From the NCBI GenBank assembly GCA_041650995.1, contig JBAZJZ010000001.1, forward strand, positions 149,757 to 213,756: DNA of 64,000 nucleotides, written 5' to 3'. This document shows positions 6 to 61,660 of this stretch, one piece after another (the stretch's first letter is position 1; each line of letters starts with the position of its first letter). Origin of the DNA: Patescibacteria group bacterium. Lineage in GTDB: Bacteria > Patescibacteriota > Patescibacteriia > XYB2-FULL-38-15. The translations under genes were made by a program, and so were the position numbers. Below the pieces are notes generated by a model that was not told the origin of the DNA, ran no database searches, and was given only the letters and a program-made list of their open reading frames with translations.

Positions 6-566
6 ATGATTGTTGCCGCAGCAGCAATTTTTGGTGTGAGATTTTTTAGTGAAGAAGACAGCTGGATTTGCGAAAATGGCGAATGGGTAAAGCACGGAAA
101 TCCGAGCGCGGCAAAACCAAATGAAGGTTGCGGTATTCTGCTGGTAAATCAGCCGGCAAACACGAACGCAGAAGAAACGATGACTGTGAAAGTATTTTTT
201 GGGAACAGCATTTTTGACCCGGAAGTTTTGGATTGCCAGAAAAATTTCGCGGTAGAAAGAACAATTCCGAAAACTGAAGCTGTGGCGCGCGCCGCATTAG
301 AGCAACTTTTATCCGGGCCAACTGACGCCGAAAAAGCAGAAGGATATTTTACGAGCATTAATCCGGGAGTGAAGATCCAGAGTTTGGTTGTGGCGAACGG
401 CATCGCCAATGTTGATTTTGATGAGCAATTGGAATTTCAGGTCGGCGGATCATGCCGGGTTGCGGCTATCGCGTCGCAAATCAGGGAAACTTTAAAACAA
501 TTTCCGACCGTGACGGACGTGGTGATTTCCATTAATGGACGAACTGAAGATATTTTGCAACCATAA
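6..566 (+). CDS. GerMN/Gmad-type domain protein (secreted or lipoprotein-like); may continue upstream of the window
   Basis: 186-aa ORF whose frame is open to the window edge. C-terminal part resembles GerMN-type domains. Similar Gmad2-like fold again at 4934..5500. Confidence 0.45.
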   Translation: MIVAAAAIFGVRFFSEEDSWICENGEWVKHGNPSAAKPNEGCGILLVNQPANTNAEETMTVKVFFGNSIFDPEVLDCQKNFAVERTIPKTEAVARAALEQLLSGPTDAEKAEGYFTSINPGVKIQSLVVANGIANVDFDEQLEFQVGGSCRVAAIASQIRETLKQFPTVTDVVISINGRTEDILQP

Positions 567-568
567 AA

Positions 569-1210
569 ATGGAAAAAAAAATAAAAAATGGAATCATTGC
601 CGTCCGAAAGCCAAAAGGCCCGACATCTTTTGATGTAATCCATAAGTTGCGGAAGATTTCCGGTATTAAAAAAATCGGTCACGCCGGAACTCTAGATACT
701 CTGGCTAGCGGAGTTTTGGTAGTTGGTATTGGCCGTGAGGCGACGAGAAAATTACATGAAATTGTGGAATTGGAAAAAGAATATATGGCGACGATTCGGT
801 TTGGCGAGGAAAGCACGACAGACGATGAGGCTGGAGAAAAATCAGTCGTGGAGTTTGTAAAAAAACCATCGCGAGCTGACGTGGAAAAAGCATTAGCCAA
901 GTTTAGTGGAAAAATTATGCAATTACCACCGAATTTCAGCGCGATAAAAATCGGCGGCGTGCGAGCTTATAAAATGGCGAGGCGGGGACAATCGCCGAAA
1001 TTAATAAAACGTCCGGTGGAAGTTAAAAAAATAAAAATTATAAAATATAAATGGCCGTTGCTCAAAATTAAAATTATCTCCGGCTCGGGATTTTATGTCA
1101 GGGCGCTGGCCCGCGATTTGGGAAGAAAATTAAAAGTCGGCGGATATTTGGCGGCACTCGAGCGGACGCGCGTCGGGCAGTTTAAAAAAAATATGGCCAT
1201 TAAAATATGA
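569..1210 (+). CDS. truB: tRNA pseudouridine(55) synthase TruB
   Basis: 213 aa with the GHAGTLD catalytic-Asp motif (KKIGHAGTLDTLASGVLVVGIG). Confidence 0.85.
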   Translation: MEKKIKNGIIAVRKPKGPTSFDVIHKLRKISGIKKIGHAGTLDTLASGVLVVGIGREATRKLHEIVELEKEYMATIRFGEESTTDDEAGEKSVVEFVKKPSRADVEKALAKFSGKIMQLPPNFSAIKIGGVRAYKMARRGQSPKLIKRPVEVKKIKIIKYKWPLLKIKIISGSGFYVRALARDLGRKLKVGGYLAALERTRVGQFKKNMAIKI

Positions 1211-2221: not shown

Positions 2222-2692
2222 ATGAGAATGAAGATGAGTTTTATTTTTATTCCGATTGCAGTTTTTGCCGTGGCCGCGCTCGGCTCTTGGCTCACGGGCG
2301 GAGGAATGGATTGGTACAAAACAATTAACTTGCCGAGCTTCACGCCGCCGGGTTCAGTGATTGGCACGGTCTGGACAATAATTTTTATTTTGACAGCAAT
2401 TTCCGCAATTATTTTCTGGCAAAAAGCGCCTCGTGATGGAAGGTTTTGGTGGGTTTTAGGATTTTTTATTTTAAATGGTTTATTAAATGTTTTTTGGAGT
2501 TTTTTATTTTTCAATCGTCATTGGCTTTACGCCGCAGTTTGGGAAGCGGGAATTCTTGATCTTAGTGTTGTAGTTTTGATTATTTTAATCTGGCCCGTTT
2601 CGCGTCTGGCTTCAACGCTTTTTATGCCGTACGCCGCCTGGACAACTTTCGCAACTTATTTAACTTATGTGATTTGGAGCTTGAATAAATAA
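2222..2692 (+). CDS. tspO: TspO/MBR tryptophan-rich sensory protein
   Basis: 156 aa, ~5 TM helices, Trp-rich (WLTGGGMDWYK, FWWVLGFFILNG), TspO family size. Confidence 0.7.
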   Translation: MRMKMSFIFIPIAVFAVAALGSWLTGGGMDWYKTINLPSFTPPGSVIGTVWTIIFILTAISAIIFWQKAPRDGRFWWVLGFFILNGLLNVFWSFLFFNRHWLYAAVWEAGILDLSVVVLIILIWPVSRLASTLFMPYAAWTTFATYLTYVIWSLNK

Positions 2693-2702
2693 TTTTATTT
2701 TT

Positions 2703-3515
2703 ATGTGTTTTGGGGAGAAGAAAAATAAAAAATACAAAGTCGGTTTAGCATTGGGGAGCGGAGGAGCTAGGGGTCTGGCGCACATCGGAGTGATTAAGGT
2801 TCTTTTGGAAAATAATATTCCAATTCATTGTATTGTGGGCTCAAGTATCGGAGCACTGATCGGCGGAATTTACGCCACAACCGGCGATGTTAGTGAAGTA
2901 GAAAAAATAGCTAGAGGAAATAATTGGCGGCAGCTTCTTGATTTAATGTGGGATCCTACATTAAAGGGAGGGCTGAACGGCGGTAAAAAAATTGAGATGT
3001 TTATAAGAAAACAAATTAATGGCGTAAACTTTTCCGACCTGAAAATGCGCTTTGCTGCCGTAGCAACAAATTTTGAAACGGGGGAGCCTGTAGTAATGAA
3101 GACTGGTGATGTCACATTAGCTATCAAAAGCAGTTTGTCGGTGCCGATTATTTTTAATCCGGTTGAGTTTAACGGAAAAATTTTAGTTGATGGCGGGCTT
3201 TCGGAACCAGTGCCAGTCGACGCGGTAAGAAAATTAGGCGCGGATTTTGTGATCGCCGTTAATTTGGATAATTGCCATTTGGTCAAAAAGAAAAAAATCG
3301 GATTTTTTGAGGCGGTCGAAGACTCTTTGAGTATTTTACGCCACCATTTATCTAAAGAAAAAGTTAAAGCTGCTGATATTTTGGTTGAACCGAAAGTTTT
3401 TCCACAATCTCTTATTGGTTGGCGCCAATTTATGGAAAGCGACAAATTCATTGCCGAGGGAGAAAGGGCCATGAGAGCGGCTTTGCCGAAATTAAAAAAG
3501 TTGATCGGCATGTAA
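2703..3515 (+). CDS. patatin-like phospholipase
   Basis: GSGGARG oxyanion motif, GSSIG (GxSxG) nucleophile motif, DGG dyad Asp (VDGGLS). Confidence 0.8.
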   Translation: MCFGEKKNKKYKVGLALGSGGARGLAHIGVIKVLLENNIPIHCIVGSSIGALIGGIYATTGDVSEVEKIARGNNWRQLLDLMWDPTLKGGLNGGKKIEMFIRKQINGVNFSDLKMRFAAVATNFETGEPVVMKTGDVTLAIKSSLSVPIIFNPVEFNGKILVDGGLSEPVPVDAVRKLGADFVIAVNLDNCHLVKKKKIGFFEAVEDSLSILRHHLSKEKVKAADILVEPKVFPQSLIGWRQFMESDKFIAEGERAMRAALPKLKKLIGM

Positions 3516-3517
3516 TT

Positions 3518-3991
3518 ATGATTGTGATTTTACATAATATCAGAAGCACGCATAATGTCGGTTCGATTTTTCGGACAGCCGACGCGGCAGGGTGCCAAAA
3601 AATTTATTTGTGTGGAATTACGTCGGCGCCGGTTGATCGGTTTGGCCGCGTGAATGAAAAAATCAGTAAAGTGGCCTTGGGCGCGGAAAAGTGGATCGCC
3701 TGGGAAAAAGTTGGCCAAACGACAAGGTTAATTGATAAAATAAAGAAGGACGGTTATAAAATTTTGGCGATTGAACAATCGCGTCGTTCAATCCCATATC
3801 AAAAAATAAAATTATCAAAAAAAGATTTGGCAAAAACGGCGCTTATCGTCGGTAATGAAATATGGGGTTTGCCGCCGGCAATTTTGCGCCGGACTGATAA
3901 AATTTTAGAAATTCCGATGCGCGGCAAAAAGGAATCGCTAAACGTCGCCGTAGCTTTTGGAGTCGTAGCCTTTAATTTAATCAATAAATAA
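3518..3991 (+). CDS. SpoU/TrmH-family RNA 2'-O-methyltransferase
   Basis: Start moved to the ATG at 3518 (the track ORF at 3419 overlaps the patatin gene). ~157 aa with IVGNEIWGLPP SpoU motif. Confidence 0.7.
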   Translation: MIVILHNIRSTHNVGSIFRTADAAGCQKIYLCGITSAPVDRFGRVNEKISKVALGAEKWIAWEKVGQTTRLIDKIKKDGYKILAIEQSRRSIPYQKIKLSKKDLAKTALIVGNEIWGLPPAILRRTDKILEIPMRGKKESLNVAVAFGVVAFNLINK

Positions 3992-3993
3992 TT

Positions 3994-4707
3994 ATGAAAG
4001 TGCACAGATTTATCAGTAATTTTAATTTTGATAAAAAAATTACATCAATTACAAATAAAGAAATTTATAATCAAATAAAAAATGTTTTGCATCTCCGGCC
4101 GGGCGAAGAAATTATTTTGGGCGATGGGGAGGGGAGAGAGGCGCGCGCGGGAATTATGGATTTTGGAAAGCAGAGCGTGGGGATAAAGATTTTTAAAGTG
4201 GAAGCAAACGAGACCGAGCCGGAAATGAAACCAATTCTTTACGCGGCGATTTTAAAAAAAGAAAATTTTGAGTTGGTGGCGGAAAAAGCGGTGGAAGCTG
4301 GTGTGGCGGAAATCATTCCGGTTATAACTGCGAAAACTATAAAAACAAATTTGCGAATGGACAGATTGGAAAAAATTGTCCGTGAGGCGGCGGAGCAGTC
4401 TGGCCGGGGAATTTTGCCAGCAGTGGGAAAGATTTTGAAATTTAAAGAAGCTTTGGCTCATGCCGAAGAAAATGATTCAAATTTATTTTTTGAAGTTCGC
4501 GCGCCGCGTTTTGAACAAAGAAAATTAGCGGTTGATGTTGGCCGGCGAGTGGGGGTTTGGATTGGGCCAGAAGGCGGCTGGGATGAAGAGGAAATAAAAG
4601 CGGTTCAGGAGAAAAATTTTCAACTTGTCAGTTTAGGAAAATTAACTTTGCGGGCCGAGACCGCGGCAATTGTTGCCAGCTATCTCGTTGCTTCGGCAAA
4701 AAATTAA
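3994..4707 (+). CDS. rsmE: 16S rRNA m3U1498 methyltransferase RsmE
   Basis: 237 aa, C-terminal GPEGGW motif, RsmE-like length. Confidence 0.75.
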   Translation: MKVHRFISNFNFDKKITSITNKEIYNQIKNVLHLRPGEEIILGDGEGREARAGIMDFGKQSVGIKIFKVEANETEPEMKPILYAAILKKENFELVAEKAVEAGVAEIIPVITAKTIKTNLRMDRLEKIVREAAEQSGRGILPAVGKILKFKEALAHAEENDSNLFFEVRAPRFEQRKLAVDVGRRVGVWIGPEGGWDEEEIKAVQEKNFQLVSLGKLTLRAETAAIVASYLVASAKN

Positions 4708-4933: not shown

Positions 4934-5500
4934 ATGAAAACAAGAATCGCAATTTTATTAATCGTTCTTATTTTTCTTTCGGGCGGAGTATTTTATTACT
5001 ACAATTTTTACAAAGAAACTCCACTAGTCGGAAATGAAAATCAAAACGTTCCAGTCGTTACGGTTACAAATTTTGAAGAATGCGTTGCCACCGGAAATCC
5101 GGTTATGGAATCTTATCCGCGCCAATGCCGGGCGGGCAACCAAAATTTTATAGAATATATCGGCAATGAATTGGAAAAAACAGATTTAATAAAAATTGAT
5201 TCACCGCGGCCAAACACAGTTGTCACAAGTCCGCTTGAAGTGACGGGTCAAGCCCGCGGAACATGGTATTTTGAAGCCAGTTTTCCGGTGAAACTTTTGG
5301 ATGCGAACGGCGTGCAACTTGCCGTTATTCCGGCTCAGGCGCAAGGCGAATGGATGACTGAAGAATTTGTGTCGTTCAAAGCGACTTTAGAATTTACCGC
5401 GCCGACTACCGACACTGGTACTTTAGTTTTGGAAAAAGACAATCCCTCCGGCCTTCCGGAAAACGACGACTCGCTTATCGTACCAGTGAGGTTTAGATAA
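4934..5500 (+). CDS. secreted protein with Gmad2 Ig-like domain
   Basis: N-terminal TM/signal (IAILLIVLIFLSGGVFYYY). C-terminal beta-rich domain (VTSPLEVTGQARGTWYFEASFPVKLLDANG...) as found in GerMN-associated Gmad2. Confidence 0.5.
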   Translation: MKTRIAILLIVLIFLSGGVFYYYNFYKETPLVGNENQNVPVVTVTNFEECVATGNPVMESYPRQCRAGNQNFIEYIGNELEKTDLIKIDSPRPNTVVTSPLEVTGQARGTWYFEASFPVKLLDANGVQLAVIPAQAQGEWMTEEFVSFKATLEFTAPTTDTGTLVLEKDNPSGLPENDDSLIVPVRFR

Positions 5501-5515
5501 ATTAATTTAAATTTT

Positions 5516-6007
5516 ATGCGTGAAAAAATTGGTGCCGCTCCAGAGGGAAAAACCTCAAATTTAAAAACACCGGAAGGTTTTAGCGAGGCGGTAATACGAA
5601 AACCGAGCTCGGAAGAAATTTCACGGATTTCAGTGGAAGACACGGCGGAATTGATGAGAAAATTTTTAGGTTTGGCTTGGTTTTTGCCGCATTTAGAAAC
5701 ATACGGCGAAACTCCTGAAGCCGAGCGGGAATTAAAATCAGTAGTTGATAATACTCTTAAAACAATGAGAGAGCTCGATTTGGTACGGGACAGATTGGCT
5801 GCAAATAAATTAGACAAGAAATTAGTAGAAAAGAGCCGCGAGGCATTTATTAATCATTTATTTGATTATTTACAATTTGTCAAGGCAAGAATTGAAAGGT
5901 TTTTATTGCCATCAGCAAAATATAAAAAACAAGTAGCCGCTGGCGCTTCAGCAGTGCCAGTAAGTTTTAGAGAACTTCTTGAGGCGTATTTGAGAATGGT
6001 CCATTAA
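5516..6007 (+). CDS. hypothetical protein
   Basis: 163-aa ORF, helical/charged, no recognisable motif. Confidence 0.4.
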   Translation: MREKIGAAPEGKTSNLKTPEGFSEAVIRKPSSEEISRISVEDTAELMRKFLGLAWFLPHLETYGETPEAERELKSVVDNTLKTMRELDLVRDRLAANKLDKKLVEKSREAFINHLFDYLQFVKARIERFLLPSAKYKKQVAAGASAVPVSFRELLEAYLRMVH

Positions 6008-6019
6008 ATGTTTTGAAAT

Positions 6020-6056
6020 AAAAAAAGAGAGCTTGTCGAAGGCTCTCGGTCGGTTC
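6020..6056 (-). terminator. rho-independent terminator for the minus-strand ORFan (hairpin gagagc-N9-gctctc plus T-run on minus strand)
   Basis: Perfect 6-bp stem at 6036..6056. The A-run 6020..6035 on + reads as a U-run on -. Confidence 0.55.
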
Positions 6057-6074
6057 GCGTGTTTGCAAACCGTT

Positions 6075-6341
6075 TTACGACTTCCGCTGTCGCGTCTCGC
6101 GGTAATGTAGAATTATTCCCACGACCGTGATGATGAAGAAGAGTATTTGTACGGCACCAATGCGCCAGGCTCCAGACATGAATGCATCAATTCCGATGCC
6201 AAGTTGGCCGAGGAGCGAGAAGATCATGAAGAGTAAAAACTCCCGATCGTAAGTGAGCTTTGTGCCCTTGAGTGAAAGTCGCACCCATGCGATCGCTTGG
6301 AGGGTTATCAAGAAATACAGAACGAGTCGAAGTCCGTCCAT
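6075..6341 (-). CDS. small membrane protein, GC-elevated ORFan (88 aa from ATG; the track ORF starts at an upstream GTG)
   Basis: Only minus-strand gene in the first 60 kb. ~50 % GC versus ~33 % in the flanks. AAGGAGG RBS 5 nt before the ATG (plus CAT at 6339..6341). 2-3 TM helices. Confidence 0.55.
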   Translation of the reverse strand: MDGLRLVLYFLITLQAIAWVRLSLKGTKLTYDREFLLFMIFSLLGQLGIGIDAFMSGAWRIGAVQILFFIITVVGIILHYRETRQRKS

Positions 6342-6357
6342 TAGTTCCTCCTTCTTT

Positions 6358-6407
6358 ACCACAACTTTGTGGTCGTTTAATATTAATGGATATTAGAAAA
6401 TTGTCAA
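6358..6407 (-). promoter_or_regulatory. sigma70-like promoter for the minus ORFan (-35 TTGACA = plus 6402..6407, -10 TAATAT ~6380..6385) with a perfect palindrome ACCACAA-CT-TTGTGGT (6358..6373) at about +1
   Basis: Read from the reverse complement. The 7-bp-arm palindrome sits between promoter and RBS, an operator-like placement. Confidence 0.45.
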
Positions 6408-6438
6408 CATAAATTCAGTTTCGTCTTTTAGTGATTTT

Positions 6439-6448
6439 GTGCTATAAT
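6439..6448 (+). promoter_or_regulatory. extended -10 promoter (TGcTATAAT) upstream of hpf
   Basis: TTTTGTGCTATAAT. The same TTTTGTGnTATAAT box recurs before the genes at 15162, 17611, 19239, 25375, 25968 and 35368. Confidence 0.5.
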
Positions 6449-6476
6449 TTGATAATTAATCATTAATATTTTCCAT

Positions 6477-6773
6477 ATGCAAATTGACTATTTTTTCAAA
6501 AATTTAACCCCGAATGAAAAGAAGTGGTGTGAGGAATATGTTGAGACGAAAATTCCGCAGTTAGAAAAATTAATTCATCGGCAGGCGGAAGATTCAGTCT
6601 CGCTCCGAATAAAGGCGGAAAAGTTCAGCACCAATAGCGCTTACAAAATTACTTTCGATTTAAAACTGCCAAAACAAAGTTTTCTCGTGAGCGAGGATGA
6701 CCATACGATTGTTGAGGCGATTGATTTGGCTAAAGATAAATTGATCGCGCAATTAAAGAAATTAAAAAGATAA
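6477..6773 (+). CDS. hpf: ribosome hibernation-promoting factor / RaiA (YfiA family)
   Basis: 98 aa, typical HPF length and beta-alpha pattern (MQIDYFFKNLTPNEKKW...). Confidence 0.65.
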   Translation: MQIDYFFKNLTPNEKKWCEEYVETKIPQLEKLIHRQAEDSVSLRIKAEKFSTNSAYKITFDLKLPKQSFLVSEDDHTIVEAIDLAKDKLIAQLKKLKR

Positions 6774-6775
6774 CT

Positions 6776-7777
6776 ATGGCAAAAAATTTTGACGTCGTGA
6801 CGATTGGTGGCGCGGCGCGGGATATTACTTTTTATACCAAAGAAGGAAGATTAGTTGCCCAAATGAAAGATCCGTTGCGGCAGAAGCTTTTAGGATTTGA
6901 GTACGGCGCGAAAATCAATATTGAAAAATCATTTCAAACTTTTGGCGGAGGAGCGGCGAACGCGGCTGTGGCTTTGGCGCGCTTAGGTTTGAAGACCGCG
7001 GCGATCGCGCGAGTCGGAAAAGATGAAGACGGCCGGGCAGTCATCACAAATTTAGTGAAAAATAAAATTGACACAAAATTTATTCAAATTGATCCGGCCG
7101 CTAAAACCGGTTTTTCTTTTATTGTAACTTTTGGTCCGGAAGTTGAGCATACGGCGTTTCTATTCCGCGGGGCGAATAATAATTTAAAACTCGCGGCTCG
7201 CGATTTAAAATTAAAAACGGACTGGTTTTATGTCGCGTCGCTCTCTGGCGAGGGATGGCGCGGCGTGCTCGATTCCGTGGTCGCAAAAAAAGAAACGCGG
7301 CTTGCCTGGAATCCGGGAAACACGCAGCTTGCGGCAGGTCTTTCGGGTTTAAAAAAATACATGGCAAAAACGGCGATATTTTTTGTAAATAAAGATGAGG
7401 CAATTCAACTTGTTGTCTCTCTTCCAAAATATAAAAAAGCGAGCACGACTTGGCTAAATCAGCCGAAAAATCTTTTCGGGGTTTTGGCGGAATTTTGTCC
7501 GGGAATTTTGGTAATTACCGACGGTGCGAAAGGCGCATATGTTTTTTTTCGCGGGAAAATACATCACCAAATTTCTTTAAGTAAAAAAATTGTGGACACG
7601 ACCGGGGCTGGCGACACATTTTGCTCAAGCTTTCTCGCCGGCTACATTAATTATTGCGGAGATATTTTAAAAGCCGCCAAACTCGGTGCTATAAACAGCG
7701 CTTACAATTTAACTGGCATCGGAGCGCAAGAACCTCTTTTAACTTGGCGCGAGGCCGAAAAATTAATGGGAAAATAA
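6776..7777 (+). CDS. PfkB-family carbohydrate kinase (ribokinase-like)
   Basis: GGAANAAVALARLG N-terminal motif and DTTGAGDTF C-terminal motif. Confidence 0.8.
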   Translation: MAKNFDVVTIGGAARDITFYTKEGRLVAQMKDPLRQKLLGFEYGAKINIEKSFQTFGGGAANAAVALARLGLKTAAIARVGKDEDGRAVITNLVKNKIDTKFIQIDPAAKTGFSFIVTFGPEVEHTAFLFRGANNNLKLAARDLKLKTDWFYVASLSGEGWRGVLDSVVAKKETRLAWNPGNTQLAAGLSGLKKYMAKTAIFFVNKDEAIQLVVSLPKYKKASTTWLNQPKNLFGVLAEFCPGILVITDGAKGAYVFFRGKIHHQISLSKKIVDTTGAGDTFCSSFLAGYINYCGDILKAAKLGAINSAYNLTGIGAQEPLLTWREAEKLMGK

Positions 7778-13184: not shown

Positions 13185-13254
13185 CGAACGAGATGGAGTG
13201 GCACCGCCTTGCGGTGCCAAAAAGTAACAGCGCAAGGCGCTGTCATTCCGGAAT

Positions 13255-13279
13255 CCACGCGAAAAGCGTGGATTTTTAT
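13255..13279 (+). terminator. rho-independent terminator after lepA (ccacgc-gaaaa-gcgtgg + TTTTTAT)
   Basis: Third of three consecutive hairpins (13199..13218, 13228..13242, 13255..13271). Only this one has a U-tail. Confidence 0.7.
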
Positions 13280-13388
13280 ATTGGCGTGGAGTTGTTTGAA
13301 TTAGTATATATTAGCAATAATTATGACAATTTATTTTGGCTAATTTAAGCTAAAATAATGAATTTTTTGGGAAATAGTGTCAGAAACC

Positions 13389-13418
13389 CTTGACAAAATA
13401 CGGAATATATGTTATACT
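13389..13418 (+). promoter_or_regulatory. near-consensus sigma70 promoter TTGACA-N18-TATACT driving a ~410-nt leader and the high-GC ORFan
   Basis: cccTTGACAaaatacggaatatatgtTATACTta. Extended TG present. Confidence 0.55.
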
Positions 13419-13830
13419 TACTTGTTAAGCTGAAATAGGCTTAAAGATTAAAAAAAGTGCTTGTCGTGCTGGAACAGATGCGCTTCGCGCGCTGTTCTCC
13501 TACGAATTACGAATCTATTACGAATATACGAATAGATTACGCACATTGAAAAAAGTGCCAGAGAAACTTGGAGGAGGAAAGTCTTCGTGAACCATTAATT
13601 GGTAACCACGAGACCCGGCATGAGGTTCAATTAAATTTCGGTGTCCGTCCTGCGGATTACTAAAAGTTAATTGACCAAAATGCCACCGGCCAGTCCTGTG
13701 TTATCAGGACAGGCCAACTCACCTCCAAATTCCTCTGGCACACTCCGTAGAATCGGAGAGCCAAAGGTCAGATCGTGGATGGTTCCCGGTCTGATTTTTC
13801 ATAACTGCCAAGAGAAGAAGGAGATTGGAT

Positions 13831-14910
13831 ATGGCGGAAGCGACGAAGATCGTCCCGGTGCCGGCAGGCACCCTGACCGACGAGGATTACGAGGAAATGA
13901 TCGTCGCCGCCATGCCGTCTCCCGTGGAGACGCAGGTGGCGCCGACCCTGGTCGTGACCGAGCCGGAGAAGCCGGCCGAGCCCAAGAAGCGGCGGGTTTG
14001 CAGCAAGTGCGGCCACCACGACGGGAACAGCGTCGGCAGGATCAGGCGTGGTCGACTGGCCGAGAAGTGGGACAAGGAGCGGGGCATCAGGGTGTACTAC
14101 GTCGATTGGTTCTGCCAGCCCTGCCTCGACCGCGAGTCCGAATTGCTCGAGCTCGAATGCGATCCGCGTCCGGTCGGCAAGGGCGGATACCTCATCGCCC
14201 TTTGCGGCCTCCGGAACAAGGAGGAGGCCGAGCGCTACGCCGCTCGGACCGCCAGGGAGCGGTACCAGGTGGCGAAGGCCACATGGCTCGCCATCCTGGC
14301 GGGCGAGAAGCCCTTCCTCGAGAACGTCGAGAGGGAGACGGGGTGCTGCGAGTTCGGCGGCTGCGACACCGAAGTGGACGCCGAGGTGTTCGCTGTCGTG
14401 AACGGCCAGCTTCGCCGCTTCTGTCGCCTCCACGCCGAGACGCTGCGGGAGATCAAGGTGAAGGGGCGGAACAAAGACCCGCGCCTCATGGCCTGGCGAG
14501 GTCCGGAAGCTGAGGCCAAGTGCCAGCGGCACTTGGCCTGGCTCAGGCACCAGGCCAAGGAAGCCGAGCGCCGCGCGACCCCGGCGAGCCCCGAGTTCGT
14601 CGATCGTCTGAAGGGCGTCTTCGACCGTCGCTCCAACGATGAGCGCAAGGCCGACAGGAGCGAGGCGTCTCGGACCGCCAAGGAGCGGCAGGCGGCCTAC
14701 GCCGCGGCGCTTCGGAACGGCGGGAGCCTCGCTGACGTCGTGTCCGTGTCCGAAGAGACGGTCGAGACCAGGGACGACGGCTCGGATCCGGTCTGGGCCG
14801 AGATCGTCGCCCACAACCACGCGGTCGACGCCCGCTGCGCCGGCAAGCGCAAGAAGGGTGGCGGCAAGAAGGACGGCAAGGACAAGGGCGGCAAGAACAA
14901 GCGCCGCTAG
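13831..14910 (+). CDS. high-GC ORFan: Cys-cluster (Zn-binding-like) protein with lysine-rich C-terminal tail
   Basis: AAGGAG RBS 13817..13822, ATG 13831. ~65 % GC with G/C at ~90 % of third positions in this frame only; the minus 13768..14952 and other-frame ORFs are shadows. CSKCGHH...CQPC and CCEFGGCD...C clusters. KRKKGGGKKDGKDKGGKNKRR tail. Confidence 0.7.
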   Translation: MAEATKIVPVPAGTLTDEDYEEMIVAAMPSPVETQVAPTLVVTEPEKPAEPKKRRVCSKCGHHDGNSVGRIRRGRLAEKWDKERGIRVYYVDWFCQPCLDRESELLELECDPRPVGKGGYLIALCGLRNKEEAERYAARTARERYQVAKATWLAILAGEKPFLENVERETGCCEFGGCDTEVDAEVFAVVNGQLRRFCRLHAETLREIKVKGRNKDPRLMAWRGPEAEAKCQRHLAWLRHQAKEAERRATPASPEFVDRLKGVFDRRSNDERKADRSEASRTAKERQAAYAAALRNGGSLADVVSVSEETVETRDDGSDPVWAEIVAHNHAVDARCAGKRKKGGGKKDGKDKGGKNKRR

Positions 14911-14941
14911 CCGTCCCCTCGGTTCGTTCCTTTCAATATTT

Positions 14942-15063
14942 TCTTGGAGCAAGTAGTCTGTGCAATGCAGACACTGTTTGCAAATCGAGAAATCGAGGCG
15001 TGACAGGATCTTGCTCCAAGTCCCTTTCCTCTGAATCAGTATAAGTTGGTTTGGAGGAAAGGG
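14942..15063. repeat. nested inverted repeats downstream of the high-GC ORF
   Basis: cttggagcaag (14942..14952) / cttgctccaag (15009..15019). tccctttcctc (15021..15031) / gaggaaaggga (15053..15063). Internal gtctg-N7-cagac and a tandem aaatcgag x2. Confidence 0.6.
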
Positions 15064-15121
15064 ATTAATAACAAAAACAAAATTTTAGTCATTTTTGACT
15101 ATATTTAAATCCCATACAAGA

Positions 15122-15148
15122 ACACTGCCGCTTGGCGGTGTTTTTGTT
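15122..15148 (+). terminator. terminator-like hairpin (cactgccgc-ttg-gcggtg) + TTTTTGTTTT
   Basis: GC stem with U-run, directly upstream of the recJ promoter box (TGcTATAAT at 15159..15167). Confidence 0.5.
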
Positions 15149-15195
15149 TTAAAAGATGTGCTATAATAGTCCAATATTTATTTCTTAATTTATTT

Positions 15196-15291
15196 ATGAA
15201 AAAAAGAAATTTATTGAAAATCGTTTGGATAATTTTAAGCGCCATGATTGTTTTTTCAATGGTTATTTGGACGGTAGCCCCGATGTTTTAA
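15196..15291 (+). CDS. 31-aa hydrophobic micro-ORF (MKKRNLLKIVWIILSAMIVFSMVIWTVAPMF) between the promoter and recJ
   Basis: ATG..TAA in the leader of recJ. Single TM-like helix. Not in the ORF track (<60 aa). Confidence 0.3.
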   Translation: MKKRNLLKIVWIILSAMIVFSMVIWTVAPMF

Positions 15292-15300
15292 ATTGAGTTT

Positions 15301-17198: not shown

Positions 17199-17612
17199 AT
17201 GATTTATAATAAACTTCAAATTTTTACCGACGGCGGCGCGCGAGGTAATCCCGGACCGTCCGGCATCGGCGTTGTGATTTGGTCTGGAAATGAATTAGTT
17301 GGTCAGTATAAAAAATATATTGGCGAGGCGACTAATAATCAGGCCGAATATAAGGCGGTAATTTTGGCTCTTGAAGAAGCCAAAAAATTGAGCCCGACTG
17401 AGCTGGAATTTTTTCTTGATAGTGAATTGGTTGTGAAACAATTAAATCGTGAATATAAAGTAAAGGATAAAGAGCTGGCGCCGCTTTTTGTTCAGGTTTG
17501 GAATTTAAGTATGGGATTTAAAAAGGTGACTTTTACGCACGTGCCGCGAGAGAAAAATAAGGAAGCGGATAAATTAGTTAATGAAGCGATGGATGAGGCG
17601 ACGCGAAAGTGA
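17199..17612 (+). CDS. rnhA: ribonuclease HI
   Basis: 137 aa, TDGGARGNPGPSGIGVVI (D), NNQAEYKAVILAL (E), DSELVV (D), RNase H fold. Confidence 0.85.
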   Translation: MIYNKLQIFTDGGARGNPGPSGIGVVIWSGNELVGQYKKYIGEATNNQAEYKAVILALEEAKKLSPTELEFFLDSELVVKQLNREYKVKDKELAPLFVQVWNLSMGFKKVTFTHVPREKNKEADKLVNEAMDEATRK

Positions 17613-47606: not shown

Positions 47607-47638
47607 TTAATCTCACACCAAGGTGTGAAGAAAGGAAA
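47607..47638 (+). promoter_or_regulatory. 32-bp operator+RBS module copy 1 (TTAATC-TCACACCAAGGTGTGA-AGAAAGGAAA), 16-bp perfect palindrome
   Basis: Identical 32-mer at 48175..48206. Palindrome TCACACC-AA-GGTGTGA at 47613..47628 ends 12 nt before the ATG. Confidence 0.65.
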
Positions 47639-47640
47639 CT

Positions 47641-47847
47641 ATGGATCAGAAATTTGATCAAGCATTTGTGAATTACAATCTTGATTTGAAAGCGGCACGT
47701 ATCCGGAATGGCACGGATCACGGCCCGGTATCCAACCTCAGCTACAAGTGTGTTGAGTGCGGAAAATTCGTGAGCGGCCGGGTGGTTGATTTTTACGATG
47801 GAGAGGTTGAGAGAGTCCGGTGCTACGAGTGCCAAAATAAAGAATAA
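47641..47847 (+). CDS. small Zn-ribbon protein (CVECGKF...CYECQ)
   Basis: 68 aa, two CxxC pairs. First gene after operator copy 1. Confidence 0.5.
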   Translation: MDQKFDQAFVNYNLDLKAARIRNGTDHGPVSNLSYKCVECGKFVSGRVVDFYDGEVERVRCYECQNKE

Positions 47848-48174: not shown

Positions 48175-48206
48175 TTAATCTCACACCAAGGTGTGAAGAA
48201 AGGAAA
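48175..48206 (+). promoter_or_regulatory. 32-bp operator+RBS module copy 2
   Basis: Identical to 47607..47638. Palindrome at 48181..48196. ATG of the next gene at 48210. Confidence 0.65.
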
Positions 48207-48209
48207 AGT

Positions 48210-49022
48210 ATGGCTGATACCATGAAGCCGGAAAATGAAAAAAGAGAACCGACACAAATTGTTAAAGCAGGAGAAAGTTTACCGCCGCAATTGATTGATC
48301 CGGCTAAGCAAGTTGAATTTGCCGGCCGCGCGGCCAAAGTTTTGATGGATATTATCAAAACAAAACCAAAAAAATTAGTTTTAAATGGTGAGCAATACAT
48401 TGAGTTTGAGGATTGGCAGACTGTCGCGCGGTTCTACAACATGACGGTTGGCGTTGACTGGACAAGAGAGATTATGCGTGAAGGAAAAATCCACGGATTT
48501 GAAGCCAAGGCAAATGTCTACAATTCTGGCGGAACAATAATCTCGTCGGCCGAAGCATCTTGTTTAAGGGATGAACCAAAATGGAATACCCGATCAAAAT
48601 ACGAATATAAAAATGGTAAGAGAAATAAAGTTAGTGACGAATTGGTCCCAGAATTTCAGTTAAAAAGTATGGCACAGACGCGGGCCTCTGCCAAGGCGTT
48701 GCGCAACGTGCTGGCCTGGGTTGTAGTGCTGGCTGGGTTCAAGGCCACGCCGGCTGAAGAAATGGATGGTGTAGAGGGTTTTGAGAGCCGGGCCGCAGCG
48801 CCGCCCGCAGGGTCAGTTGCCAGACCGGCAGTAAGACCTCCGGTTGCACCGGTCGCAAAAGATACATCGGCCAATGTTCCGGGAATTCCTGAAGAAAAAT
48901 TAATCTGCGCGATGACCGGTGTTAAAATCACTCAGGAAGAATATGCCTACAGCATGCGCAAATACGGAATGCCTTTAAGCCGGGCCGCGCAAAGAGAACA
49001 GCAGCAAGGAGGGGGAAATTAA
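48210..49022 (+). CDS. putative phage single-strand annealing protein (RecT/ERF-like), tentative
   Basis: 270 aa. Central region (LVLNGEQYIEFEDWQTVARFYNMTV...KSMAQTRASAKALRNVLAWVV) resembles RecT/Redbeta-type SSAPs. Ala/Pro-rich C-terminus. Adjacent to an exonuclease and RusA. Confidence 0.35.
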   Translation: MADTMKPENEKREPTQIVKAGESLPPQLIDPAKQVEFAGRAAKVLMDIIKTKPKKLVLNGEQYIEFEDWQTVARFYNMTVGVDWTREIMREGKIHGFEAKANVYNSGGTIISSAEASCLRDEPKWNTRSKYEYKNGKRNKVSDELVPEFQLKSMAQTRASAKALRNVLAWVVVLAGFKATPAEEMDGVEGFESRAAAPPAGSVARPAVRPPVAPVAKDTSANVPGIPEEKLICAMTGVKITQEEYAYSMRKYGMPLSRAAQREQQQGGGN

Positions 49023-59648: not shown

Positions 59649-61091
59649 ATGCAAAAACTTTTCAATTCAAAGTGGTTTAAAAGAATATCCATTGGCATTT
59701 TAGCCGTGGCTATTTTAATAATTCCACTCATTACGGCCGCGCAGATGGGCGGAGGTATCAGCGTGCCAAATTTCTTTAAGAGAGTAGGCAACGCCATAAA
59801 CCCGACAAACTCCTCCTGGACTCTCGGTTCTTCCGGCACACCTCTTGCCAACGGCTACTTCACGGCGCTCACCGCGGGCACGCTTACAATCTCTTCCACT
59901 GTCTCCGGCGACTTATCAGTGGGGGGCGTGATTAAGGCAAGTGCCGGCACCGCCGCCGCACCTTCCATAACTTTTACGGCCAATCCTGATACCGGATTTT
60001 ATTATAGTGCCGATACTATGGGCGTTGTTATAAACGGAACAATCGTTGGCAGTTTTACCGGATCAGGAGTACGAGCGACACAATTTATGAATACGGCGGC
60101 AGCTCACGTGTCCATTTTGGGCATGAACGCCGACGGAGCTACGGCTTATGCAACAAAAATTGGAAGCAATACGGCATTGACAACCGTCGGAGCAAAAATA
60201 GTTGGATTTTATAATGATGGATTTGTAACCGAAAAAGCGTACATTGATAAAGACGGCAATATGTATTTAGGCGGTGGGGCGATGATTGCCTTAACTTCAA
60301 ATACTGCGGCTTATTTCGCTGGAAACATAAGCAATGGTGCTTCTGCTATCGGAGTACAAATTGGAAATATAAACGCACTAAGCACGGCTGGAGCTAAGAT
60401 TGTAAGTTTTTACTCTGATAACAGAACAACTGAAAAAGCTTATGTAGATTATCTCGGTTCTTTCAATGCCGGTGCAGGGACTGCTTTATTGCCTGCTTAC
60501 TCGTTTGTTGCTGACCCGAATACTGGTATCTATTCGTATGGCGCTGACCAGATTGGATTTACTACAAACGGAGTTGCAAGAGCTTCATTAGACCAAACTG
60601 CTTTCTGGAATAGTACCTTTTATTCATTTGGTGCGGCGACCATTACAATGAAGGGTCAAGTTGCGGATGGAGCAAGTGCTGTTGGGGTTACTCTCGGTTC
60701 TTATGTATCCCAGACAACGGCAGGCGGAAAACTGTTATCTGTCGTAAACAACACGACGGAAAAGGCCTTTATAGACAAAGACGGCGCTTTCGGCTCGGTT
60801 CTCGGCGCGGCGACTATCGCGAACGCCGCTACTACTTTTGCGGCGCAAGGCAATGTAATGACCGTTACCGGCGATGCTGGCGGAAATACCGTGGCGACAA
60901 TTACGGCGGGCGTGGTCGGACAACGGCTCACGATGAAATTTGTTGACGCTTTGGTAACAATTACTGATACGGACGCGGCCACCGCGAACACAGTCAATTT
61001 AAGTGCGGCGTTTACTTCCACGGCGAACGACACGATGACGATTGTTTTTGACGGAAATAAATGGTTTGAAGTTTCTAGAGCGATTAATTAA
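59649..61091 (+). CDS. secreted Gly/Ala/Thr-rich repeat protein (3 x ~80-aa repeats ending TEKA(Y/F)(I/V)D..G)
   Basis: N-terminal signal/[22 protein letters not shown]. Repeats ...[24 protein letters not shown], ...[24 protein letters not shown], ...[22 protein letters not shown]. Confidence 0.5.
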
Positions 61092-61660
61092 TGTTTCAAT
61101 CTTGGATTATGGAATTTGCGATGTTCGGCGCGAGACATTAATTGTAGATTTTCAAGCCGATTATCAAGTTTATTTCCATTATTATGGTGGACAATTTCCG
61201 AAGTAATGAGTTTTCTTTTTAGATGTTTTTCCATGATAAGCCGATGTTCGCTGACCCGTTTTCCTTTAATAGAAAAAACCTTATATCCTTTCACAAGAAA
61301 TCCACTTCCATCATTAATTAATTTTAGGGGATCACCGTGTCGTAAAAATCTATGATAATGCATTGCACAAAATCCATGAGAGCCACCCTTATAAGTATCA
61401 GAAATATTATTGCAATTTTCTATAATACATTTTTTGGGTATAGAGTGGAATTTACGGAGACAAGACATAGAGCAAAATTGTGTTTTTCGTTGTTCAGAAT
61501 GAAAAGTAATATGGCAAAATTTACATTCTTTATCTGGAACTTTATGATGAAGAAGTTTTATTGGATCACCATATCTTCTCCAACGAGTGTAATGCATTAG
61601 ACAAAAATCTTTGATAATTCTCGTCGTGTTGTGGCAATTCTTGATTGAGCAATGTTTCAT
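61088..61660 (-). CDS. HNH endonuclease with duplicated N-terminal Cys/His zinc-finger modules
   Basis: HNH core [25 protein letters not shown]. Two repeats C..NC.N...FC.MHY.R..R.GDP. Confidence 0.7.

Follow-up and report, generated by a model that had tools for sequence, protein, structure and literature searches.

In this study, we describe a small reverse-strand unit in a 64,000-nt stretch of a Patescibacteria genome (contig JBAZJZ010000001.1, positions 149,757 to 213,756; hereafter the window), in which an open reading frame (ORF) for an 88-aa membrane protein lies between gmad2 and hpf. We consider it probable, at roughly 0.6, that this unit is an autonomous single-gene accessory cassette in a hypervariable gmad2-hpf slot of a Patescibacteria clade. 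Nucleotide comparison with relatives establishes the modular architecture of the locus and its presence/absence polymorphism, and it shows that unrelated ORFs have a 5' module and a 3' module in common. No prior description of such cassettes in Patescibacteria was found in the literature and, as far as our searches show, a locus architecture in which interchangeable foreign ORFs beside hpf are each framed by standardised promoter, leader and terminator modules is undescribed.

Promoter and terminator modules of the gmad2-hpf slot

A first-pass annotation of the window had described the 88-aa gene as a complete, insulated expression unit of elevated GC, and its elements (promoter, palindrome, AAGGAGG-N5-ATG, hairpin with U-run) were all recovered at the positions given in Table 1. 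The comparison of the hpf upstream region in relatives, which it had proposed, revealed a variable slot with other reverse-strand units that carry the same modules. The description as an insulated expression unit is borne out by the same promoter and terminator modules around unrelated ORFs, and by presence or absence of the unit between conserved neighbours. Relatives were fetched via the neighbouring PfkB kinase (L numbers denote loci). Four genomes with PfkB, HPF and Gmad2 proteins 71-89%, 86-97% and 75-86% identical keep the order gmad2...hpf-pfkB-ptac and lack both the 88-aa gene and the adjacent 163-aa gene of the window. Their gmad2-hpf gaps contain a HExxH protein (L012), a hydrolase and a terminator piece standing alone (L014), or reverse-strand ORFs whose GC content, 57-61%, exceeds the 43-45% of their genomes (L011 and L013). 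DNA homology between the window and these relatives ends at the gmad2 stop codon and resumes exactly at the cassette promoter/palindrome. A piece of about 40-80 nt with the terminator of the window recurs after every reverse-strand ORF of L011 and L013. Their tandem units start with TTGACA-N17-TATTAT, about 7 nt, the palindrome CCACAAttTTGTGG or GTCACaatttcGTGAC, a Shine-Dalgarno sequence and the ORF, and they end with (A)ACAAGTCGTAAAAC, a short hairpin and GACC-GAGAGCCTTCGACAAGCTCTC-T7-ATTT. An exact search of metagenome contigs with the terminator core returned seven loci, every one in the gmad2-hpf gap of a related genome. In total, 11 gmad2-hpf gaps were mapped in cassette orientation and 14 cassettes were compared, including that of L039. 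The slot holds from none to at least two cassettes, all oriented against hpf; the hpf promoter stands back to back with the cassette promoter and forms the conserved right edge of the slot.

The genes carried in these cassettes (cargos) are diverse. Besides the 88-aa protein of the window (49% GC), they comprise a DUF218/YdcF protein (L011, L013 and L035; Pfam E = 3.6e-18), a 120-138-aa family (L032, L037 and L038), a 76-aa protein with two transmembrane (TM) segments, a 69-aa Cys-rich protein, a 195-aa polytopic membrane protein, and proteins of 110-120, 106-131 and 122 aa. Cargos have 49-64% GC (52-64% in the relatives) and their hosts about 41-46%. The same gap also turns over low-GC plus-strand genes, namely the 163-aa gene in the window, which is host-like at 39% GC and absent from all close relatives, and the HExxH, hydrolase and NUDIX genes in relatives.

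Further features were noted in the relatives' slots. In the hpf-proximal part of the L032 gap (2365..3788), a further plus-strand gene, of 208 aa, separates the cassette array from hpf; upstream of this gene stands a copy of the hpf-promoter sequence of the other genomes (…TTAATTGATAAATTATAACATAAAATCATGAAAAGACGAAAT…), which abuts the cassette promoter in the place of hpf. In L035 (3137..3235), a GC-rich segment of about 70-90 nt (…CATTGCGAGGATCCGCCCGCTGGCGGAGACGCGGCAATCCC…) between hpf and the usual promoter region could be a small repeat or an insertion resembling a miniature inverted-repeat transposable element. L013 is OZ246416.1, a complete chromosome of 886 kb that is deposited as 'uncultured Gammaproteobacteria bacterium'; this label looks wrong, judged by its synteny and by PfkB and HPF proteins 84-97% identical to those of metagenome-assembled Patescibacteria genomes.

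Taken alone, the promoter and the palindrome of the window are unremarkable. TTGACA-N16-TAATAT is the top promoter-like site within 5000..7500 (score 10/12), but the number of such sites in these 2.5 kb is not significant (7 vs 4.1 +/- 1.9 expected), and with 48 perfect 7-bp-arm palindromes in the window (22 +/- 5 in shuffles) a single one is not rare. It is their conservation in related cassettes, rather than this single sequence, that makes the elements significant. The -35 hexamer TTGACA is perfect in all 14 cassettes, with a spacer of 16-17 nt, and 12 of them have a hairpin that starts no more than about 3 nt from the predicted +1. A purine run of Shine-Dalgarno type is present in the cassette leaders that were read. 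Three promoter/leader types can be distinguished, and type A, that of the window, precedes at least six unrelated cargos. The palindrome itself occurs once in the 64-kb window, is identical in L039, and is replaced at the same place by other stems in other cassettes; the +1 stems are ACCACA/UGUGGU, GUCAC/GUGAC, UCUGUGGC/GCCGCAGA (with one G.U pair), UCAGUG/CACUGA and GACACUA/UGGUGUC. In the window, it is predicted to form a 5'-terminal mRNA stem-loop of 6 bp with a 4-nt loop (-7.4 kcal/mol).

The palindrome had been proposed to be the site of a dimeric repressor. This proposal is weakened by the differing stems at +1 in 12 of the 14 cassettes; for type A, whose palindrome core is conserved in sequence, the palindrome may still be a shared operator. 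From the compared leaders, the palindrome is more likely a 5'-terminal mRNA stem-loop than an operator, because structure and not sequence is common to the cassette types. 5'-terminal stem-loops stabilise bacterial mRNAs against 5'-end-dependent decay. Those of Escherichia coli ompA and of the Bacillus subtilis aprE and ermC leaders likewise consist of a short stable 5' hairpin followed by a strong Shine-Dalgarno sequence. In contrast to these, the transcription start site (TSS) is predicted here, and the type-A stem, which is conserved in sequence as well, may have a protein-binding role. Leaders with a 5' hairpin are not a general feature of this genome, in which only a few genes have them. 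Two identical ones, TTAATC-TCACACCAAGGTGTGA-AGAAAGGAAA-N3-ATG with hairpin and Shine-Dalgarno sequence, were noted at 47607..47643 and 48175..48212 (+), ahead of a 68-aa Cys-rich ORF (47641..47847) and of the gene at 48210..49022; their design is as in the cassettes.

The 3' module of about 65 nt consists of the AAGTCGTAAAAC box, a variable hairpin with compensating changes, the hairpin GAGAGCC-TTCGACAA-GCTCTC and a T7 run. The box is identical as AGTCGTAAAAC in 13 of the 14 copies, and in the same proportion the hairpin up to the T7 run is nearly invariant. Hairpin 1 is the opposite: it has 13 distinct sequences in 14 copies, all of which fold (mean -5.6 kcal/mol vs -2.8 +/- 0.56 in shuffles). 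Several ORFs, including that of the window (...RKS*), stop at the TAA inside the module. The 71-nt 3' region of the window cassette folds at -20.5 kcal/mol (z = -4.05). Homology with the relatives' cassettes starts at TTGACA and ends at TTTTTTTATT(T/C), with …TTTTTTTATTT at the 3' and TTGACAAT… at the 5' cassette end. With a covariance model of the 3' module, the segment 6015..6083 scored 87 bits and no other place in the window more than 14.9 bits; across 32 loci, the model matched at the hpf site only. A genome-wide repeat of the repetitive extragenic palindromic (REP) type was considered and rejected, as module and palindrome each occur once in the 64 kb.

A more distant relative harbors the closest homolog of the 88-aa protein in the same setting. 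P0002 (41% identity) is encoded in L039/L040 between hpf and NUDIX-gmad2, divergently from hpf. The L039 cassette has TTGACA-N16-TAAGAT, the identical palindrome ACCACAAAGTTGTGG, an ORF ending in ...RSKS* and the same 3' module. When the window is compared with L039, module identity is 83-84%, similar to the 81.5% (nt) and 83% (aa) of hpf, whereas the cargo ORFs share 65% (nt) and 41% (aa), with 49% vs 61% GC and 60% vs 82% GC at third codon positions (GC3). The syntenic homolog is thus not of normal composition, which would have spoken against a foreign unit, but is more GC-rich still (61% in a host of 45%). In L039, a 77-aa ORF with two TM segments (478..711) is translationally coupled to P0002 (ATGGGTGA overlap) and is absent from the window cassette; it may encode a partner subunit.

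It is quite improbable that the 88-aa gene is an ordinary lineage-specific gene and that the shared modules are leftovers of tandem duplication and ORF replacement, with no mobility of cassettes. Such a history would fit the turnover of host-like low-GC plus-strand genes in the gap, the restriction of the modules to the hpf locus, and a module divergence between the window and L039 that resembles that of hpf. However, the type-A 5' module stands on at least six and the 3' module on at least nine unrelated ORF families, every cargo is compositionally foreign, the DUF218 cassette opens the array in L013 and L035 but takes the second place in L011, and terminator conservation is far above that of neutral sequence.

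The 3' module also invites comparison with integrons. In general, integron cassettes are mostly promoterless and rely on the promoter Pc, and attC clusters without integrase are known as CALINs. To our knowledge, integrons have not been described in Patescibacteria. The cassettes resemble integron arrays and CALINs in that unrelated ORFs, mostly of unknown function, are lined up in tandem and in a single orientation at one chromosomal site, each closing with a structured repeat that is partly variable in sequence and that, as at attC, provides the stop codon of several ORFs. The GAGAGCC-TTCGACAA-GCTCTC hairpin (with AAGTCGTAAAAC) might be an attC-like site for a recombinase encoded elsewhere, with an hpf-proximal attachment. 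That the hairpin hardly varies among 13 of the 14 copies, although hpf diverges by about 18%, would suit such a site, as would the 'empty' slots L014 and L036, which keep the hairpin only, directly against the hpf promoter. Even the 5' end of the cassettes, TTGACAA, resembles the hairpin loop TTCGACAA, which was read by eye and is speculative. However, the ORFs at about 1-19 kb of the window, which reach some 10 kb to both sides of the slot, showed no integrase or other recombinase domain, and an adjacent intI with attI and Pc is lacking. Every cassette has its own promoter, and the repeat doubles as a canonical intrinsic terminator. Read by eye rather than with an attC model, the 3' module consists of two separate short hairpins, with a GTAAAAC that has no GTTTTAC partner downstream; R''/R' boxes (RYYYAAC...GTTRRRY) and a single long imperfect hairpin of the attC type are missing. 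Moreover, a simple crossover, whether within the hairpin loop or within the AAGTCGTAAAAC box, does not fit the junction patterns. We regard an undescribed integron-analogous cassette system of the Candidate Phyla Radiation (CPR), with cassettes that are ready for expression through a standardised promoter, a stabilising 5' hairpin and a Shine-Dalgarno sequence, and in which the terminator hairpin doubles as the site of an unlinked recombinase, as rather unlikely. The chief point that keeps a site-specific recombination alive is the near-invariance of the second hairpin together with its loop, for which termination does not account.

The 88-aa protein and its family

The 88-aa protein had been taken for an ORFan, which did not hold. 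A phmmer search against 1.84 billion representatives returned 20 full-length homologs (75-120 aa, 27-48% identity, E down to 2.8e-10), one of them the syntenic P0002, and a profile search from these homologs reached 33 clusters. Altogether, the homologous clusters of such three-TM proteins number about 45 and are mostly of Patescibacteria. In a word-indexed protein search, the protein itself was the sole match. The few named clusters are 'hypothetical protein' entries of Parcubacteria, Patescibacteria group or Yanofskybacteria. One homolog is found in a genome of 70% GC, so that membership of the family is not strictly limited to the CPR. In the alignment, Q15, a K-G-G-x-L loop, G45-Q46, D/E53, A-W at 58-59, Q65, F68, T72, G75 and R79 are conserved along three hydrophobic segments; Q15, G45-Q46, D/E53, Q65, T72 and R79 are the polar residues placed inside the membrane. 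The 88-aa protein possesses the family motifs Q (TM1)...KGG.L, GQ...(E/D) (TM2) and AWG...Q..FF..T..G...R (TM3) and matches its own family profile with E = 4.8e-25. AlphaFold2 with the family alignment predicts helices at 3-25, 32-56 and 59-87 (mean pLDDT 88), so that of the two to three TM segments first proposed, three are now predicted. The charge distribution (positive-inside) fits an N-out/C-in topology with a basic C-terminus. Neither a significant Pfam, NCBIfam, PHROG or PADLOC match for the 88-aa protein nor a Pfam domain in its homolog clusters was found. A structured RNA in place of a gene was rejected, as there is no gathering-level Rfam hit in the window and the homologs confirm coding; an Rfam E-value scan of 5900..6500 gave one chance hit (E = 9.7), and ARAGORN detected no tRNA or tmRNA.

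With about 85-95 aa, three TM helices, N-out/C-in topology, intramembrane polar residues and a TM1 Gln followed by a basic Gly-containing loop, the family is reminiscent of SemiSWEET/PQ-loop proteins. This candidate failed at the level of sequence profiles: there is no Pfam MtN3_slv or PQ-loop match, apart from one family member that scores 0.021, and hhalign of the family against the 4QNC and 4RNG sequences gave a probability of 0.3%. Elsewhere, homologs are flanked by a GT5/GT4 glycosyltransferase and GH57/GH15, by FemAB and a Mur ligase, or by a pair of DUF2784 membrane proteins, or they adjoin PAP2. It is tempting to speculate that the 88-aa protein is a non-toxic, probably oligomeric small membrane component, perhaps of a solute or ion pathway or as an accessory subunit, a suggestion that we offer as a weak one.

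The first-pass annotation had proposed a toxin-like or holin-like membrane peptide, switched by a dimeric repressor on the palindrome over +1. Certainly, the protein is small and hydrophobic, with three TM helices and a basic C-terminus, and its gene combines strong promoter and Shine-Dalgarno signals with a perfect palindrome that spans +1. Single family members even hit holin Pfam families below threshold (E 0.004-0.025), and several cargos have the type-A core CCACAA-TT-T(C/T)GTGG with its sequence conserved, which is what one expects of a shared operator. However, holin, PHROG and PADLOC searches gave no significant match, and there is no endolysin or antitoxin nearby, no plus-strand promoter-like site within 6020..6410 for an antisense RNA, which may nevertheless exist, and no regulator gene linked to the slot. 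The homologs, co-directional among genes such as FemAB/Mur ligase, GT/GH57/GH15, DUF2784 and PAP2, are in surroundings unexpected for toxins. Furthermore, the same 5' module drives the enzyme-like DUF218/YdcF and other soluble proteins, and the hairpins of types B and C, one of them with a G.U pair, are unrelated in sequence at the same place. Peptides of type I toxin-antitoxin systems usually have less than 60 aa and one TM segment, whereas this protein has 88 aa and three. Consequently, a toxin or holin role under a repressor is very unlikely.

Composition, strand and other features of the window

The 88-aa gene had been singled out as a GC-elevated lone reverse-strand gene. Its GC content of 49.4% indeed exceeds that of the adjoining 200-nt flanks (33.2% and 32.0%). 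Against the 63 plus-strand genes of the window, which are the fairer background (41.6 +/- 3.6%), it is a mild outlier (z = 2.2), and about 7% of 267-nt windows reach its value. GC3 is a real outlier: at 59.6% vs 39 +/- 4.9% it exceeds that of all 63 genes. Likewise, the codon-usage score of -0.15 (0.36 +/- 0.10 for the host genes) is lower than that of all 63. The lone position on the minus strand was confirmed, with no further credible minus-strand gene in the intergenic gaps before 61 kb. In the next one (61088..61660), which is possibly a homing or mobile element where the strand uniformity ends, Pfam recognised an HNH_3 endonuclease domain (E = 5.9e-09). The coordinates of the cassette and its neighbours are collected in Table 1.

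Table 1. Positions of the cassette elements and of adjoining features in the window.
Feature	Position	Strand	Basis or remark
Whole cassette, -35 hexamer to terminator T-run/ATTT	6016..6407	-	Homology limits against relatives' cassettes
-35 hexamer TTGACA	6407..6402	-	Perfect in 14/14 cassettes compared
-10 hexamer TAATAT, 16-nt spacer	6385..6380	-	Promoter-like site scan and cassette comparison
Palindrome ACCACAA-ag-TTGTGGT (ACCACAAAGTTGTGGT)	6373..6358	-	Perfect; onset 7 nt past -10 box
Shine-Dalgarno sequence AAGGAGG	6353..6347	-	5 nt ahead of ATG at 6341
88-aa ORF, integral membrane protein with three TM segments, unnamed family	6341..6075	-	Homologs, alignment, AlphaFold2
Box AAGTCGTAAAAC	6072..6083	-	Opens 3' module; its TAA is the ORF stop codon
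Hairpin 1 of 3' module, GGTTTGC-aaacac-GCGAACC	6071..6052	-	Sequence variable, structure kept
Intrinsic terminator GACC-GAGAGC-CTTCGACAA-GCTCTC-T7-ATTT	6016..6051	-	Nearly invariant across cassettes
Terminator hairpin GAGAGC-N9-GCTCTC	6047..6027	-	T7 at 6026..6020
hpf promoter TTCGTC-N17-TGcTATAAT	6420..6448	+	Read from sequence; conserved in all relatives
163-aa gene, second variable occupant of gmad2-hpf gap	5516..6007	+	No Pfam/NCBIfam match

Two other genes of the window deserve mention. A 359-aa ORF between lepA and recJ (13831..14910, +) has about 66% GC in a genome of 41.6% GC, which is a much stronger composition anomaly than that of the 88-aa cassette. It has its own ribosome-binding site AAGGAGA and long AT-rich flanks (13185..13830 and 14911..15300) with differing hairpins; it has no Pfam or PHROG match, and its GC content gives rise to ORFs in several frames. 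Possibly, it is another foreign insert. The 137-aa RNase H/RVT_3 ('reverse transcriptase-like') domain protein at 17199..17612 (+) is probably an ordinary RNase HI.

Possible origin and exchange of the cassettes, and their meaning

The cargo pool seems to circulate within the CPR rather than to come from phages or plasmids, as far as sequence matches tell. The DUF218 cargo has relatives of 54-81% identity in other Parcubacteria, and only distant YdcF genes were found for it in plasmids. A tblastn search with P0002 against plasmids and phages gave no match, and the cargos have no PADLOC or PHROG matches. Viral contigs contain no exact 25-mer of the 3' module; two matches to a 19-nt pattern of the promoter module and 22 17-mers were taken as chance and a viral link was rejected, since against the 3'-module model the viral-contig matches are marginal at best (19-26 bits, real copies 54-94). 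At a different locus, between HD_4 and aspartate decarboxylase, DUF218/YdcF homologs 63-66% identical to the cassette cargo were observed in L043 and L045 (both 3501..4019) as lone counter-strand genes of 54-57% GC in hosts of 41-43% GC. They possess their own TTGACA promoter, unlike that of the cassettes, and a different terminator; therefore, the pattern of a lone GC-rich reverse gene recurs at other loci.

Phage morons, a concept of Hendrix and Juhala, are defined by their own promoter and terminator, deviant composition, insertion between phage genes and variable presence (PMC2920897). The cassette shows three of these four traits. At the sequence level it has its own promoter and factor-independent terminator, it deviates in composition and is inserted between conserved neighbours, and its presence varies among relatives, with different units in the same hot spot; location in a phage or prophage is the trait it lacks. 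In contrast to a moron, it lies among the housekeeping genes for hpf, pfkB, PTAC/acetate kinase, RsmE, SpoU and TruB, without PHROG hits, and the unrelated cargos share standardised promoter and terminator sequences, unlike those of typical morons.

For the favoured autonomous cassette, we propose a transcript of the 88-aa gene with ends near 6373 and 6020. Its 5' hairpin might stabilise it against 5'-end-dependent decay, while the 3' module would terminate transcription and insulate the unit. Hairpin 1, together with GUUUUAC on the other strand, may additionally stop convergent transcription from the 163-aa gene. Cassettes would be gained, lost and swapped by recombination through the conserved modules and flanks, and the simplest route of exchange would be homologous recombination after DNA uptake.

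Several points weigh against this interpretation. The promoter, TSS, hairpin function and termination of the window cassette are sequence predictions, and the sample covers about a dozen loci of one clade. No recombinase or mobility gene was found within about 10 kb of the slot. The near-invariance of the 36-nt terminator, including its loop, is more than termination alone would account for given the divergence of hpf, and it hints at a sequence-specific partner. As for the cargo, fold searches for the 88-aa protein were unspecific, and its homologs elsewhere are co-directional in ordinary gene clusters with no constant partner. Consequently, no family, fold or context signal stands behind a functional assignment, in which our confidence is low.

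CPR genomes are tiny and streamlined, and little is known about how their accessory genes are acquired and expressed. The gmad2-hpf locus represents a naturally occurring 'expression cassette', with a design that stands midway from phage morons to integron cassettes. If exchange is active and site-specific, gene capture of a new kind would be at work and, should the doubtful integron-analogous scheme be true, ultra-small genomes would sample foreign GC-rich genes at one safe, insulated site beside hpf. Even if cassettes are exchanged by mere recombination via the modules, the locus provides defined CPR promoter, leader and terminator parts for a barely tractable group. The slot can serve as a marker locus for strain-level variation. 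In addition, it supplies a set of small accessory proteins, the 3-TM family among them, on which strain-specific selection probably acts.

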